From the NCBI GenBank assembly GCA_016209525.1, contig JACQWK010000125.1, positions 377 to 64,376 of the forward strand: 64,000 nt of DNA, written 5' to 3'. The notes beneath the pieces were generated by a model. The model did not search any database. It saw nothing but the letters and a program-made list of their open reading frames with translations, and was not told where the DNA came from. Origin of the DNA: Verrucomicrobiota bacterium (lineage in GTDB: Bacteria; Verrucomicrobiota; Verrucomicrobiia; Limisphaerales; SIBE01). Shown here piece after piece: positions 52,773 to 58,304 of the stretch; the stretch's first letter is position 1; every line of letters starts with the position of its first letter. The translations under genes were made by a program, and so were the position numbers.

Positions 52773-53210
52773 CTTCGGTCTCTCGGGCAAGTTGGCGGTC
52801 TGCGAGGCCAGGCATGCCTTCTACTCGGTCGGCAGCGAGCTTCTTGCCGGTGAATCTCGAATTGTCTCGCATGGATCAATTGCGATTCGAAGAAACCCAT
52901 TACTCCTGTAGTAATTGTGCGCTCTGCTCGCGATCGGATTCGGCGCGACGGCCCTGCTTGCCCAAAGCGCTCCGTCGGAAACCCATTGCCGCCGTTTGCC
53001 CACGTTCGGTAGGCTACCGAAGAAACCGATGCCAAGCCGCCGTTCTGTCAAAGCCGACGTCAGCTTCCATCAGCGGCCCCTTCGCCAGCGACAACGGCTG
53101 CGTCTTCCCGTCGGACCTCATCCAGACGACCGAGAGCAAGTCCGAGAACTATGGAACGTGGTTCGCAATCTTCTCGCTTCGGCGACCCGGAAATGTAATG
53201 CTCATCGCAC

Positions 53211-53879
53211 ATGGACCTCAAAGACATCTCCCAGAGGATTGAAAGCGAGCTGACTGAGCTGTTTGAGGAACTCCGCTCTGGGATTTCCGCGAGGGAAGAT
53301 TCGCGCGCTTTCGGGGCCCTGATCGAACACCGGATCAAGCAGAACTGGGAGGCCATCTGTTCTCGATGCGGTTTTGTGCCCGTTGACCTACCTGGCCGCA
53401 GAACAATATTCGACTTCGGTTTCAAAATTGAGGAACGGATCGTGGGCATCGACGTCAAGACCAAGGACCTCGACACGACGAAATATTCCGACGGCGGCAT
53501 TTGCGCGGTCGGGAATCTCCTGAAGTTCCTCGCCAACGACCGCGGCCAGTTCATCATCGCGGAGTATGGCCACAACCAGTCGTCAACCGATTCTGGAGCG
53601 AGGGATCTCGAGTACATCCGAGTGGCTCCATTCACTTGTCTGCCCGTAAACGCTTACCGGATCGAGAACCTTGGCACCGGCCAGGTCCGCCTCAACTACA
53701 CGATCAATCAGGTCTGGGAGGAGATCGATTGGGAGCGGGACAATAACCGGTTCTACGATTACTTCACCGACCTCGCCATCCAGCACTACCAGCGCGTAGG
53801 CCGTGACGCGCAGCGGCGACTCCAAGCGATTCAAGCCTTCCGACAGGGCGGATATGCGCACTTCCAATTCATACGCTAG
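53211..53879 (+). CDS. putative type II restriction endonuclease (PD-(D/E)xK)
   Basis: 'RTIFDFGFKIEERIVGIDVKTKD' fits the D...(D/E)xK pattern. The 3' end overlaps the methyltransferase gene by 26 nt. Confidence 0.55.
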   Translation: MDLKDISQRIESELTELFEELRSGISAREDSRAFGALIEHRIKQNWEAICSRCGFVPVDLPGRRTIFDFGFKIEERIVGIDVKTKDLDTTKYSDGGICAVGNLLKFLANDRGQFIIAEYGHNQSSTDSGARDLEYIRVAPFTCLPVNAYRIENLGTGQVRLNYTINQVWEEIDWERDNNRFYDYFTDLAIQHYQRVGRDAQRRLQAIQAFRQGGYAHFQFIR

Positions 53880-55383
53880 GCCGCTTGGCGCTGTCTTCAC
53901 ACCGCTCCGCTGGGCCAAGTGGCTGGTGCGTGAATTTGGTTTGGCTCAGAAGTGGATGCGCGGTGCGACGGTCTGTGACCCGACGGCCGGCGAGGGTGTG
54001 TTCATCCATGCGCTCATGGACGTAATTGTGGAGATGGACATCGCGGTTGATGACCAGATGCTCTCCCGCCTGTTCGTCATCGAGCGCGAAACCGCGTTTC
54101 TCCAAGCTTTCCATGCATCATTCCGCTTGAAATACAGCCGTGAATTCCCGCGCGAAAACAGCCTTTGCGCTGACGTGGTTCTGCGGAACCCCGGAATCAA
54201 GTTTGACGTGCTTCTTGGCAACCCACCGTGGGCCAACTTCAACGACCTGCCTGCGCCCTACAAGGAAACGCTGAAGAGCGCGTTCCTCGAATTCGGACTG
54301 GTGGAGGATCCCCAATCCTTGCTGCTAGGGCGGGCACGGGTGGATTTTTCCGCCTTGGTGGTTTCCGTCGTCCTCAACCGGAATCTCGCTCCGCACGGCG
54401 AGGCCATTTTCTTCCTCCCACTCTCCCTCTTCCTGAACGACGGGGCGCACTCCGGTTTCCGGCGGTACTCGCTCAATGACTCGACGTTCCAACTCGCCGA
54501 ACTTTGGGACTTCAAACAGACGCGGATCTTCCCGGATATCGCGACGCGCTTCGGTGTAGCCCGCTTTCAGCGTGACGCCCAAACGCAGTTCCCGATTCCC
54601 TATCGCATCGAAACCACGAACGGATGGATTTCCCGCATGGCGGCTCCGGTCGGCGAACCTTCCGCCCCGCTCTCCGTCTTCGATTCGCAGGCGGAGTACG
54701 CGGAACTCACCCGCCCTGTCGCCATCGAAGTGCGTGAGAACCAGAAACCGCGCCAGGGCGTGAACACATGTGGCGCCAACCGAGTCTTCATCTTCGATTC
54801 CCTGCCTGAAGGTCTGCCCGGCGAATTCCTCTTTCCGCTCATCACCAGCGAGTGCTTCCGCAACGGCGACACCTCGCCGCGGCGACACGTCCTACTGCCC
54901 TACGACACCACCACCGGCAAGCCGCTGACCGAAACAGCCCTCTGTCACCACCCCGCGCTCTGGACCTACCTGCTCGCCCACAGGGACGAACTGCTGGCCC
55001 GCAAAGGCACGATGCTGAACACATGGCTCAAGCGCGGCCTCTGGTGGGCGCTCCTCGGCGTCGGCGACTACAGCTTCGCCCCCTTCAAAGTCGTCTGGGA
55101 AGCGTACGGCAAAGACACGTTCAACCCGCGCGTCTTCTCCGCCCACAACGGCAAACCGTGGCAAGCCAACCAGGCGATGCACGCCTTCATCCCGTGCGCG
55201 ACGCGCGCCGAGGCTGAACGGCTCCTGGACCAACTGGCCAGTTCCAGGATCGAACGCTACCTCCGGTCCATGAGCATGGAAGGCACCTGCAACTGGGCGC
55301 AACCCGGGCGGATCAAACGATTCTTGAAGTTTGTGAAGTCTGGCGACTCCCCTGCGTGCGAGTTGCCGCTGTTCGCTAGCTGA
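53854..55383 (+). CDS. N6-adenine DNA methyltransferase (gamma-class, TaqI/Eco57I-like)
   Basis: 'LGAVFTP', motif I 'VCDPTAGEGVF' and motif IV 'LLGNPPWANF'. Confidence 0.85.
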   Translation: MRTSNSYARPLGAVFTPLRWAKWLVREFGLAQKWMRGATVCDPTAGEGVFIHALMDVIVEMDIAVDDQMLSRLFVIERETAFLQAFHASFRLKYSREFPRENSLCADVVLRNPGIKFDVLLGNPPWANFNDLPAPYKETLKSAFLEFGLVEDPQSLLLGRARVDFSALVVSVVLNRNLAPHGEAIFFLPLSLFLNDGAHSGFRRYSLNDSTFQLAELWDFKQTRIFPDIATRFGVARFQRDAQTQFPIPYRIETTNGWISRMAAPVGEPSAPLSVFDSQAEYAELTRPVAIEVRENQKPRQGVNTCGANRVFIFDSLPEGLPGEFLFPLITSECFRNGDTSPRRHVLLPYDTTTGKPLTETALCHHPALWTYLLAHRDELLARKGTMLNTWLKRGLWWALLGVGDYSFAPFKVVWEAYGKDTFNPRVFSAHNGKPWQANQAMHAFIPCATRAEAERLLDQLASSRIERYLRSMSMEGTCNWAQPGRIKRFLKFVKSGDSPACELPLFAS

Positions 55384-55388
55384 ATCGG

Positions 55389-56114
55389 GTGCCAACGGAA
55401 AACTATAACTCACCTGGACGCCCATGTGATTTTTCGCATGATCGCTCTATGAATTCGCCGGCAACACCATCCGCGGCATCGGGTGCTGGATCAGCTCAAT
55501 CAACTCCGACGGTCACCAAGTCTGACTTTCTGGCGGCAGAAGAGATCAAGGGAATCCTGCAAGGTCGGGAGAAAGCCGAACAGGAGAGAATAATCCGGTG
55601 GGTAACCGAGAGCCTCGGCTTGATGATCATGGCTCCCGAAGCCAGCGCGCACGCTGCTACCCGGCCAGCGCCGACACCGGCCCAGTCATTCGTGCATCTC
55701 GGAGAATCTTCTGCTCCAACGCCGGCAAGTGCCAAGAACATCAAGTCGTTCGTTGGAGAAAGGAAACCAAAGAGCGATATGCAGTTTGCGGCTGTCGCAG
55801 CCTACTTTCATCGCTTTGAGTCGCCAGATCGTAAAGACACAATTAATGCTGCCGACTTGCAGGAGGCGTCTCGTCTTGCGCGAGGCTACGGATTCAAGAA
55901 ACCTTTGGTGACGCTGAACAACTCAGTCCGTCAAGGGTATTTTGATCGCGCAAGCCGAGGACAGTTCAGGCTAAATGCAGTTGGGGAAAACTTAGTAGCG
56001 ATGGCGCTTCCGGGCACGGGTGGAGAGCTGCCGCCAAATACTACGCGCCGATCGGGGCGAAATCAGGCAAGGAAACGTCGGAAGATGCAAAGCAAGAAAA
56101 CGAATGTATCCTGA
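55389..56114 (+). CDS. hypothetical protein (disordered Ala/Pro/Ser-rich centre, possible winged-helix C-terminal domain, basic tail)
   Basis: Starts 6 nt after the methyltransferase stop (GTG 55389, alternative ATG 55449). 'FAAVAAYFHRFESPDRKDTINAADLQEASRLARGYGF...GYFDRASRGQFRLN'. Confidence 0.5.
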   Translation: MPTENYNSPGRPCDFSHDRSMNSPATPSAASGAGSAQSTPTVTKSDFLAAEEIKGILQGREKAEQERIIRWVTESLGLMIMAPEASAHAATRPAPTPAQSFVHLGESSAPTPASAKNIKSFVGERKPKSDMQFAAVAAYFHRFESPDRKDTINAADLQEASRLARGYGFKKPLVTLNNSVRQGYFDRASRGQFRLNAVGENLVAMALPGTGGELPPNTTRRSGRNQARKRRKMQSKKTNVS

Positions 56115-56117
56115 CGT

Positions 56118-56957
56118 ATGGACGATGCGTGCGCGGAGATCGACGCCTCGATTGTCGAGGTTACAAAGGCACGCCAAGCGGTCGCCAGAGGGAAGTCCAA
56201 GCAGGTTTACTTGGCTGATGAGATCGATCGGCTAAAGGCTGTGGCCTACGCGTGGTTCCAAACACACCGGCCCCGTGTTCTGCCCCATCCGTCACGGCCG
56301 GATCTTCAAGAAGTCGATGCCGCCTACCAAACCGTGTTGCAAGCGACCGGGCGGCACGCTGCAAGGAGCACCTATGCGCTGGCCCTTCTACGGGCTAAGC
56401 GTTCTCTGGTGGCTCTGCGGAGCCTCGTCGCGGCAATGCCCGCTACACTCTCCACACAAATGGCTTCCCCCGCTCCCCTCCCGAACTCCGATGCACCGCC
56501 AAGTTTCGCGCCGTTGGCGCCTGATTTGAAAATGCAGGAAATAATGGCGCAGCGCTGGAGCGAAGTTCAGCAATGCATTGGATCACATGCCCACCTTGCA
56601 GCCACGGTGATGATGGGTGGTCTTCTGGAATCACTTCTCCTCGCGCGGATCAACTCTAGTCCAAACCAGCGTGCTGTGTTTACGGCGGCCAATGCTCCAC
56701 GTGATAGGACTCGGCGAACGCTGCCGTTGGCCGAATGGAAACTAGTCAAGATGGTCGAGGTCGCTCACGAACTCGGCTGGATCTCGAGATCGGCAAAGGA
56801 CGTTGGGAATGTGCTACGGGATTTCCGCAACTACATCCATCCGCACAAGGAATACACCGATGGCGTTGCGATCTCCCAAGACGATGCTTGCATGTTCTGG
56901 GAGGTCACAAAGGCGATCAGTCGTCAAGTGCTCACTTCTGTAGGGAAGTCTCCTTGA
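56118..56957 (+). CDS. hypothetical protein with a HEPN-like C-terminal domain
   Basis: Starts 4 nt after the upstream stop. Helical C-terminal domain 'LAATVMMGGLLESLLLARI...MVEVAHELGWIS...VLRDFRNYIHPHKE' fits the Rx4-6H HEPN signature. Confidence 0.5.
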   Translation: MDDACAEIDASIVEVTKARQAVARGKSKQVYLADEIDRLKAVAYAWFQTHRPRVLPHPSRPDLQEVDAAYQTVLQATGRHAARSTYALALLRAKRSLVALRSLVAAMPATLSTQMASPAPLPNSDAPPSFAPLAPDLKMQEIMAQRWSEVQQCIGSHAHLAATVMMGGLLESLLLARINSSPNQRAVFTAANAPRDRTRRTLPLAEWKLVKMVEVAHELGWISRSAKDVGNVLRDFRNYIHPHKEYTDGVAISQDDACMFWEVTKAISRQVLTSVGKSP

Positions 56958-57110
56958 CTGTTCACCGGTGTTCATTCGGCGACCATAACAGCGGTGACTG
57001 TCACAGCGACGTCTCTCTCCAGCGCCTTGGCAGTGACCGAGATAGTCATCCTGGTGGAACCGCCCCTGTAGGTTCTGCCCAACGCGCAGTCTCGCGCCAG
57101 TCATTCTCGG

Positions 57111-57833
57111 TTATTTCCTGGAACGGGCCGGCGATACGCGGTGCTTGATCTGAGACGGCGCGGATATTTTCCGGTCGCGGAGGTACGGCACCAGATGGCT
57201 GCTGGGGTACGACAGGAACCCAGGGCGCTGGTGATGCAGAATTCCGTGCAGGCAGGCCATCAGGAACTGGTTGCCGGGCCGACGACGGATCGACGCGAAA
57301 TTCAACACCTCGCGGAGCGTGTCGGGATGGTAAAACCGGCGAACCCAAGGCGGAACCTCACGCAAATCCGGTTTGGCGAAGCACCCCGCTTCTGCCAACG
57401 CTCGTTCAGCGAGGCTCAAAGCAGCGCCCAAGGAACGGGGCGCGGCCAATTTGGCTTTCGACAGAATTCGCGCGTACGGACTGATGTCAGCAGCCAAGAC
57501 CCGTCGGCCCCGCGAGGCAGCCTCAAAGGGAATCGTCCCTGCGCCGGCGAACGGATCCACTACCAACTCGCCTGGTTTCGAGAACCGCTCGACTAACTCG
57601 ACGGCAATGCTGTTCTTCATCTTGCCGATGTACGGCGACAACTGGTGCAGGGAGCAGTCGGTGCTTGCGCAAGGCTGCTTCCAGCGCGCGGGAGCCGACT
57701 CAACCGCGACGCCGGCAAACGACCATCCATCGGCTTTCCTCGTTTTCAACGCGGTGCAGGCGTTTTCACTTCTCCGGCAACTCCTCCAATCGCACGAATG
57801 CTTCGCGGTGGGCCTGCCGCCTCGATTCCGCAA
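57111..57833 (-). pseudogene. 3'-truncated SAM-dependent DNA methyltransferase-like gene
   Basis: 'SLHQLSPYIGKMKNSIAVELVERFSKPGELVVDPFAGAGTIPFEAASRGRRVLAADISP' covers motifs X and I. No (D/N)PPY/W motif appears before the stop. The ORF ends where the convergent HEPN-like gene ends. Confidence 0.45.
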
Positions 57834-58014
57834 TGCGCTTCAGGAACCGCTCGTCGTGTTCCAGCCGATAGTCAAACCAGTCGTCTTCATCCGCGAAGCC
57901 AATCAGGATAGCCGCGGGTTTGCCGTGCCGGGTGATGAGCACTTCGTCTTTCGCCGCTTTCTTCACGTAATCAGAAAGCGCATCCTTCACTTCTGCCAAG
58001 GGGACTTTAATCAT
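57766..58014 (-). CDS. Phd/YefM-family antitoxin
   Basis: 82 aa. 'MIKVPLAEVKDALSDYVKKAAKDEVLITRHGKPAAILIGF'. ATG at 58014. Confidence 0.8.
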   Translation of the reverse strand: MIKVPLAEVKDALSDYVKKAAKDEVLITRHGKPAAILIGFADEDDWFDYRLEHDERFLKRIAESRRQAHREAFVRLEELPEK

Positions 58015-58037
58015 AACTCTTCTCCGTATCGGGCCAG

Positions 58038-58304
58038 TCATTCGTCGGCGCGGTCTTTCGGCACGATTCCGAGCACGTTCACATGGTCGCCTTCGATGTC
58101 GTAATAGACCCGAATGTCCGCCACGCGGAGCCGGTACTGCGGCTGACGCAGGCCGCGCAGTCGCTTGAGGCGGCTCTTGCTTTCCTTCGCCGGTCCGTGG
58201 CGCAGGTTCGTCTCCATCGTGGCCTTGACCGCCGACCGCCAGCGTGCGTCCAGGGCCGAGAGATCGTCTCGCGCGTTGTCGGTGACCCGGATTTCGCAGG
58301 CCAT
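58038..58304 (-). CDS. RelE/ParE-family toxin
   Basis: 88 aa. 'RLKRLRGLRQPQYRLRVADIRVYYDIEGDHVNVLGIV' is typical of this family. Confidence 0.7.
   Translation of the reverse strand: MACEIRVTDNARDDLSALDARWRSAVKATMETNLRHGPAKESKSRLKRLRGLRQPQYRLRVADIRVYYDIEGDHVNVLGIVPKDRADE

Follow-up and report, generated by a model that had tools for sequence, protein, structure and literature searches.

Do four tightly packed genes in a defence islet form one system or two? This question is raised by a 64,000-nt stretch of DNA from a Verrucomicrobiota bacterium (contig JACQWK010000125.1), here called the window, whose position numbers are used throughout and whose source assembly comprises 10 Mb in 764 contigs. 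Between positions 53,211 and 56,957, four genes follow each other on the forward strand, and we refer to them in order as R, M, A, and B. The product of R (53211..53879; 222 aa) carries a PD-(D/E)xK-like signature and is a putative type II restriction endonuclease, and M (53803..55383, starting at GTG 53803 or ATG 53854) encodes a predicted gamma-class N6-adenine DNA methyltransferase. A (55389..56114) encodes a winged-helix protein with a predicted role as B's DNA-binding partner, regulator, or antitoxin. B itself (56118..56957; 279 aa) is a predicted RNase effector or toxin with a HEPN-like C-terminus. A preliminary description of this DNA had located the same four open reading frames (ORFs) and proposed that a restriction-modification (R-M) module is coupled here to a HEPN protein as a two-layer defence unit. 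All four ORFs were recovered at these positions and they are not chance ORFs, as each has hundreds of conserved homologues. Their assignment to a single DNA-plus-RNA unit was not supported, and the four genes make up two unrelated two-gene cassettes, R-M and A-B, that lie side by side.

The distribution of the genes across genomes separates the two cassettes. Our scan for homologues of B (one genome per species) yielded 79 loci, 68 of which contained a full-length B. In 67 of these 68 loci, spread over many phyla, A is located directly upstream of B. The spacers mostly range from -4 to about +30 nt (+3 nt in the window), and many pairs overlap by 4 nt. When we clustered the 1,213 ORFs of these neighbourhoods all against all, only A and B were found to recur. 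No homologue of R was detected in any of the 79 loci and M was matched in two of them, both times by a weak, distant, and non-adjacent gene. Reciprocally, A-B was found downstream of the R-M pair in one of the 38 loci seeded with R-M. The two-gene tail therefore rarely accompanies this R-M pair elsewhere, contrary to what the two-layer proposal would predict. The preliminary description had also named two findings that would speak against its own reading, namely that the last two genes occur independently of R-M genes and that they have confident housekeeping annotations. The former is what we observed; the latter is not, and the close homologues of B (~990) and A (~490) are all annotated as "hypothetical".

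The junction between the cassettes leads to the same conclusion. Based on blastn comparisons to relatives, the homology of the R-M cassette extends from 53211 or 53223 to approximately 55331-55383 and the homology of the A-B cassette from 55382 or 55451 to 56958 or 56975. For A-B, positions 55382-56958 match locus L087 and positions 55451-56975 match locus L089 (L numbers designate loci and P numbers proteins from our homologue scans). These edges, defined by relatives in other contexts, delimit A-B as a transferable unit of 55382..56975, and DNA homology ends sharply at the edges of the cassettes. An origin of such edges from integron cassettes or a transposon was also considered. The R-M pair stands alone between folB and rpsP in L091 and L092, and A-B stands alone after clpB in L087. 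The order R-M-A-B recurs in one other lineage (L089/L090/L099), which presents 82-85% nucleotide identity to the window and different flanks. In L089, a nonsense codon interrupts R at residue 158 and the methylase frame breaks off at residue 377, where a 517-bp deletion (window positions 54934-55450) takes the last 150 codons up to the start codon of A. The frames of A and B remain open despite this decay, and A-B has therefore been kept without a working R-M pair. Finally, in the closest intact relative of the R-M pair (L096; R identity of 92%), the 754 nt downstream of M do not contain A. The sharp edges, the decay in L089, and the lack of A in L096 indicate that the juxtaposition of R-M and A-B is lineage-specific.

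These results bear directly on the possibility that R-M and A-B constitute one integrated, co-inherited system with a DNA layer and an RNA layer. The four genes are tightly packed and co-directional, the same order is found on a second contig lineage with different flanks, and some R-M operons are known to include a HEPN gene (PMC3710099), all of which would speak for such a system. The near-complete absence of either cassette from the loci of the other, the lack of A next to the closest R-M relative, and the fact that the sole other joint locus combines a decayed R-M with an intact A-B make us regard it as extremely improbable. Tight packing and probable co-transcription within a defence islet are thus no proof of functional coupling, which is a caution for annotation, and here two sharp-edged cassettes have been stacked. 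The packing itself depends on the choice of start codons. The spacings of -26, +5, and +3 nt described earlier are recovered with ATG 53854 for M and GTG 55389 for A (241 aa). The longest ORF of M (GTG 53803; 526 aa) overlaps R by 77 nt (spacing of -77 nt), and ATG 55449 gives a protein A of 221 aa (P0124) that is separated from M by +65 nt. Both the database gene call and the alignment of homologues favour ATG 55449, which is probably the true start of A.

A-B is a separate, autonomous, widespread, and so far unnamed module that is independent of R-M. Its homologues were found in Verrucomicrobiota, Planctomycetota, Chloroflexota, Acidobacteriota, Myxococcota, Proteobacteria, Bacteroidota, and other phyla, and between any two pairs the identity in A correlates with that in B (r = 0.67). 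A profile search against 1.84 billion representatives retrieved 3,151 clusters (50% identity) of the B family at E <= 1e-3. The family is nevertheless patchy at closer range: it is present in 5 of 301 genomes of the phylum and, among the window's own genome and 60 relatives, in the window's own genome alone. Neither A nor B of the window has a match in Pfam, NCBIfam, or PHROGs, and neither matches a system of PADLOC-DB v2 at E values up to 1. One full-length B (L045 7986-8798; 270 aa) is the only one of the 68 without a detectable A upstream, and it may be an orphan or have a divergent partner. In the closest stand-alone relatives of the window's pair (L087 2638-7347; L088; L001 1400-1738), A-B directly follows a complete clpB (868 aa), and behind the pair lies a ClpB (AAA_2) fragment of 112 aa, as though the cassette had brought along, or taken the place of, part of a second clpB copy.

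Protein B is composed of two helical domains. In the structural model (overall predicted local distance difference test score, pLDDT, of 80), residues 1-106 form an N-terminal domain of four helices. A disordered linker with a conserved PPxFxxL..D..MQ motif follows, and the helical C-terminal domain spans residues ~137-274. Across 66 sequences of the family, residues R146, E149, C153, V164, M165, G167, G168, E171, W207, L209, W221, R237, N238, H241, and P242 are invariant and R234 is conserved in more than 90%. The third core helix (224-239) ends in the motif R234-x6-H241, which continues into the loop ahead of helix 254-274. HEPN domains are described to carry their Rx4-6H motif at the end of the third core helix and in the following loop (PMC3710099), and the location in B agrees with this position. 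Foldseek searches of the model gave local matches to the HEPN structures 2q00 (probability 0.99, TM score of 0.70 on the target), 7ae9, 6m6w, 1wwp, and 1ylm; its matches among viral structures were not meaningful. Weak matches to PF13643 (DUF4145) were detected in 9 of the 66 family members, the best at 4e-4, and a Streptomyces relative matches this profile at 1e-3. In an hhalign comparison of the B family with five true DUF4145 domains, AATVMMGGLLE was aligned to AAxxMRRxLE and RDYRNY-IHP to IKxxGNxAxHP.

Several observations weigh against this assignment. The Foldseek E values of full-length B are all above 0.1 and Csm2 bundles score equally well; the hhalign comparison reached an E value of 0.034 with low probability, which is below threshold. 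The window's B has no match to PF13643 (gathering score of 23.1 bits), and a PF13643 scan of its own genome found a different gene. It also has no match in Pfam, PADLOC, NCBIfam, PHROG, or, by sequence and profile searches, PDB. Moreover, the spacing of the invariant RN-x2-H is one residue shorter than in the DUF4145 signature, and the Rx6H reading therefore depends on R234, which is conserved in most but not all sequences. Since the motif, the fold matches, and the alignment support a HEPN domain but all thresholds were missed, we describe the C-terminal domain of B as likely to be a divergent, DUF4145-like HEPN domain rather than a member of PF13643. To this extent, the HEPN-like character that the preliminary description had attributed to the fourth gene was borne out.

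The N-terminus of protein A contains two conserved helices (residues 26-56) with the consensus KSDFMAAEEIK..L.G....EQERIIRWV.ESLGL. A disordered linker rich in Pro, Ala, and Ser follows, and the C-terminus ends in a Lys/Arg-rich tail. The AlphaFold model shows a winged helix at residues 98-184 (pLDDT > 90). The top Foldseek matches are all winged-helix DNA-binding domains (Rok, MarR, TubR, and IclR), with the DNA-binding domain of Rok as the best match. Disorder over much of the chain keeps their E values at 0.03 or weaker. From this model, we predict A to be a DNA-binding protein of the winged-helix type that ends in a basic tail.

The domains of B have been reshuffled in other proteins. Its C-terminal domain and linker motif were found behind other heads: an AbiTii domain (P0511; 4e-9), which is a known partner of HEPN domains (PMC3710099), two HNH_repeat units (P0453), winged-helix-like regions (L076/P0447, P0503, and P0506), and a region of 340 aa (P0443). 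A is absent wherever the context of these proteins is visible. Conversely, divergent A-like genes in L177, L183, and L184, which belong to two phyla, precede proteins whose N-terminal domain is homologous to that of B (hhalign probability of 95%, E value of 2.7e-8, positions 1-110 of the hidden Markov model). The C-terminal domain of these proteins is PF18165 (pP_pnuc_1), which Pfam describes as a "predicted pPIWI-associating nuclease". This sister module has the same partner architecture, a homologous adaptor-like N-terminal domain, and the same gene order and spacing as A-B, but its effector is pP_pnuc_1 instead of a DUF4145-like HEPN domain. A thus stays with the N-terminal domain of B when the warhead is exchanged, which points to an interaction between A and this domain and to the logic of a conflict system.

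Some further gene arrangements resemble A-B in outline. The winged-helix-like proteins mentioned above (L076 7398-8459, P0447, P0503, and P0506) are single proteins of 330-353 aa with no A upstream, and they may represent a fused counterpart of the two-gene design. The winged-helix-like head of the L076 protein showed no detectable homology to A (E value of 0.55). Two relatives of the window's genome (L085 643-1839 and L086 1438-2631) encode true DUF4145 proteins of ~252 aa with helical N-terminal domains. Each of these genes is preceded by a gene of 139-144 aa whose product has one helical region at its N-terminus, which a linker joins to a winged-helix-like C-terminus. Each member of one pair is homologous to its counterpart in the other (E values of 3e-21 and 8e-27), and the small upstream partners likewise showed no detectable homology to A (hhalign E value of 0.3). 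Both cases are architectural parallels only. In L177 (1286-3359; genome G218), a gene for the specificity subunit of a type I R-M system (HsdS) lies 29 nt after the sister module and a gene for a DUF6338 membrane protein lies before it.

Systems with comparable components have been characterized. The DUF4145 domain is an active defence RNase in RAZR/PD-T7-4 (PMC13017515) and is also present in BxaP (PMC10799925) and Ishtar1 (bioRxiv 10.64898/2026.07.06.735840). These proteins share with B a divergent HEPN domain of the DUF4145 kind, a conserved Arg...His site, a patchy distribution and, as predicted for B, RNA cleavage or abortive infection as the output. In RAZR the DUF4145 domain is C-terminal behind a variable head, as in B, whereas it is N-terminal in BxaP and Ishtar. 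All three are single-gene systems, whereas in A-B a winged-helix partner is obligatory and is encoded upstream. The zinc-finger, HEAT-like, or beta-rich parts of these proteins have no relation to the N-terminal domain of B, and the motif of B (R-x2-R-N-x2-H-P) is one residue shorter than that of DUF4145 (R-x2-G-N-x3-H-P), with B falling below the PF13643 threshold. The HepT-MntA (HEPN/MNT) toxin-antitoxin systems of type II/VII resemble A-B in being two-gene operons with the partner first and the HEPN RNase toxin second (RNase activity being a prediction for B), and the HepT structures 7ae9 and 6m6w are among the fold matches of B. However, the partner of HepT is a nucleotidyltransferase that AMPylates the toxin, whereas A is a winged-helix protein, and B is twice the size of HepT with an extra N-terminal domain. 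AbiE also places a winged-helix partner (the antitoxin AbiEi) upstream of its effector (the toxin AbiEii), but this toxin is a nucleotidyltransferase, and no sequence relation of A or B to AbiEi or AbiEii was detected. Finally, HEPN abortive-infection proteins of the AbiJ/AbiTii type (PMC3710099) carry, like B, a HEPN effector behind interchangeable N-terminal heads, and one relative of the C-terminal domain of B has an AbiTii head (P0511), but AbiJ and AbiTii are single genes. In the literature searched, we found no two-gene system that combines a winged-helix protein with DUF4145 and nothing on PF18165/pP_pnuc_1. The kind of system, a HEPN effector with a DNA-binding partner, is known; its parts, the pairing of A with the N-terminal domain, and the swap of the warhead are new.

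A-B is probably a toxin-antitoxin-like or abortive-infection module. B would be the effector, with a HEPN domain that dimerises and cuts RNA through R234-x6-H241 and with the N-terminal helical domain as an adaptor. The conserved N-terminal helices of A would bind this adaptor and hold B inactive, while the winged helix and basic tail of A would bind DNA, either for autoregulation by repression of the operon or for tethering. If A were lost, titrated, or displaced, as might happen upon phage or plasmid invasion, host expression shut-off, or loss of the element, B would be released and degrade RNA, so that growth would stop or the infection would be aborted. RNase-based defence by B is plausible because the DUF4145 effectors RAZR, BxaP, and Ishtar have been validated. 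More speculatively, A and the N-terminal domain of B may form a conserved sensor-adaptor pair that drives interchangeable nucleases (DUF4145-like HEPN or pP_pnuc_1) in an undescribed modular two-gene family directed against mobile elements. A, as a Rok- or linker-histone-like winged-helix protein with a basic tail, would then tether and cage the nuclease on DNA and yield only when displaced by an invader. We offer this extension as a tentative possibility.

A number of results fit a conflict module of this kind less well. The 200-nt regions that precede A at 59 loci showed no shared operator motif, and their best inverted repeats (6.08 bp) exceed those of shuffled sequence (5.51 bp) only marginally. 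A tblastn search of phage genomes gave no match to B, and the plasmid collection holds only distant relatives of its C-terminal domain. On megaplasmids, these relatives adjoin an integrase and a PIN gene or genes of the TIGR02679/TIGR02680 families, which we take to be of the Wadjet type. In addition, the enrichment of A-B in defence islands is weak because the neighbours are mostly housekeeping genes: based on Pfam and PADLOC, the 148 neighbours from 45 loci include genes such as PGK, FBP aldolase, GyrB, and LptF/G, with a few methylase, MADS, HEPN, and NYN genes.

That no conserved operator was found also counts against the view that A is a transcriptional regulator only, comparable to BrxR/CapW or to C-protein switches, and that B is a self-contained sensor-effector like RAZR whose N-terminal domain senses the invader. 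Such a division of labour would suit the winged helix and basic tail of A, the validated DUF4145 defence proteins, which are single genes whose heads sense triggers, and the many other heads behind which the C-terminal domain of B is found without A. A protein-protein partnership better accounts for the fact that A follows the N-terminal domain of B even after replacement of the effector, for the near-obligate pairing (67 of 68) with its many 4-nt overlaps, and for the strong conservation of the N-terminal segment of A, which does not belong to its DNA-binding part. We consider a purely regulatory A rather unlikely, if still a serious contender. A comparable, slightly lower standing is given to the idea that A-B is a purely selfish type II toxin-antitoxin module that has no defence role and is kept by post-segregational killing. 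The partner-first, toxin-second order, the tight coupling, the patchy and horizontally transferred distribution, the many insertions among housekeeping genes, and the presence of a ParE/Phd pair in the window's own islet would all agree with it. The near absence of A-B from plasmids and its absence from phages do not, and defence effectors typically show the kind of head and effector shuffling seen here with AbiTii and pP_pnuc_1, so that we judge a solely selfish role unlikely. Addiction and defence roles of A-B are compatible with each other and not mutually exclusive.

It is also conceivable that the pair has no part in conflict: A would be nucleoid-associated or resemble a xenogeneic silencer, built from an oligomerisation helix, a linker, and a Rok-like winged helix, and B would be a helical partner with a regulatory or non-catalytic role. 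The DNA-binding domain of Rok is indeed the best fold match of A, the overall architecture of A resembles that of H-NS/Rok-type silencers, and the evidence for a HEPN domain in B is below threshold. Against such a role, the R, N, and H residues are invariant at the HEPN catalytic position, A-B is present in less than 2% of genomes and absent from close relatives, and related proteins carry nuclease and Abi domains. A non-conflict pair is accordingly very unlikely in our assessment.

The value of this locus lies in A-B and not in the R-M pair, which is routine. The module is large (~3,150 clusters), cross-phylum, annotated as "hypothetical" throughout, and missing from Pfam, PADLOC, NCBIfam, and PHROGs. 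It presents a recognisable pattern of DNA-binding partner, adaptor domain, and swappable nuclease, which makes it a candidate for the catalogue of toxin-antitoxin and abortive-infection systems. With A-B, the DUF4145 HEPN effectors, recently validated as single-gene systems, would come to include two-gene designs as well.

The other cassette agrees with what the preliminary description had proposed for the first two genes. R seeded a scan of metagenome contigs that yielded 80 loci, 74 of which had room for a downstream gene, and a homologue of M was located directly downstream of R in 73 of these 74. Residues D68 and D81-V-K83 of R are invariant in the family alignment. R has no match in Pfam, NCBIfam, PADLOC, PHROG, or PDB by sequence and profile searches, and its assignment as a putative nuclease draws on this motif and on the pairing with M. 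The translation of M carries LLGNPPW, i.e., a (D/N)PP(Y/F/W)-type motif (NPPW). M was the only one of the four proteins matched by PADLOC (REase_MTase_IIG at 2e-29 and MTase_II at 1.5e-8), so that the PADLOC check suggested earlier succeeded for this gene and returned nothing for R, A, and B. The matches of M to Pfam Eco57I (0.0047) and to TIGR02987 were both below cut-off. To judge from sequence and gene order, R and M are a conserved, ordinary type II R-M pair that is inherited as a unit.

The pair resembles type II R-M systems with a gamma-class (NPPW) N6-adenine methyltransferase, of the Eco57I-like module, in consisting of an overlapping nuclease-methylase pair that is scattered across phyla. 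It differs from systems of that class in that the R family matches no described model and is unusually conserved. The R family comprises ~630 homologues across phyla (62-92% identity) and is a putative nuclease family without described relatives. Over the same loci (L096-L175), R is better conserved than M (identities of 62-92% versus 41-84%), the reverse of the usual R-M pattern.

The two cassettes interrupt a run of carbohydrate-active enzyme (CAZyme) genes, as had been noted before. GH92, GH127-like, and oligogalacturonate-lyase genes lie upstream and WbsX/GH99-like and GH5 genes downstream. The G+C content is 0.575-0.585 over 52.5-57.5 kb versus 0.60-0.64 in the flanks, i.e., ~3-5 points lower. 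Most likely, the cassettes were brought together in a small horizontally acquired islet within the CAZyme cluster. Genomes of the same genus or family yielded no orthologues of the flanking CAZyme genes, which leaves no empty site for comparison, and a scan of the islet for promoters and terminators gave counts at chance level. The oligogalacturonate-lyase gene and R are separated by 438 nt (52773-53210), whose sole ORF (52814-53242; 142 aa) has no Pfam match. DNA homology to relatives of the R-M pair starts exactly at 53211 and leaves this segment outside.

Directly after B, the convergent genes on the minus strand that the preliminary description had reported are present. A remnant of a truncated DNA methyltransferase (57111..57833), with partial Pfam matches only (MethyltransfD12 and N6_N4_Mtase), is part of the islet and lies outside both cassettes. 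It is followed by a toxin-antitoxin locus (57766..58304) composed of a ParE-family toxin gene (58038-58304; ParE_toxin at 7.4e-5, above the cut-off) and then a Phd/YefM antitoxin gene (57766-58014; PhdYeFM_antitox at 3.3e-10). According to these matches, ParE and Phd/YefM form a third addiction module of the islet that is unrelated to both cassettes. The toxin gene lies upstream of the antitoxin gene, the reverse of the usual order, and the antitoxin gene shares its 3' end with part of the truncated methyltransferase in its longest frame.

In L089 (6950-12840), the islet of the second R-M-A-B lineage appears to lie inside a broken DEAD/ResIII helicase gene, of which fragments of 245 and 121 aa precede a remainder of 923 aa. 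Its further genes are those of another N6_N4 methylase and a 231-aa neighbour, a helix-turn-helix gene, and a ParE toxin pair, so that various addiction and defence cassettes have accumulated at this single site.

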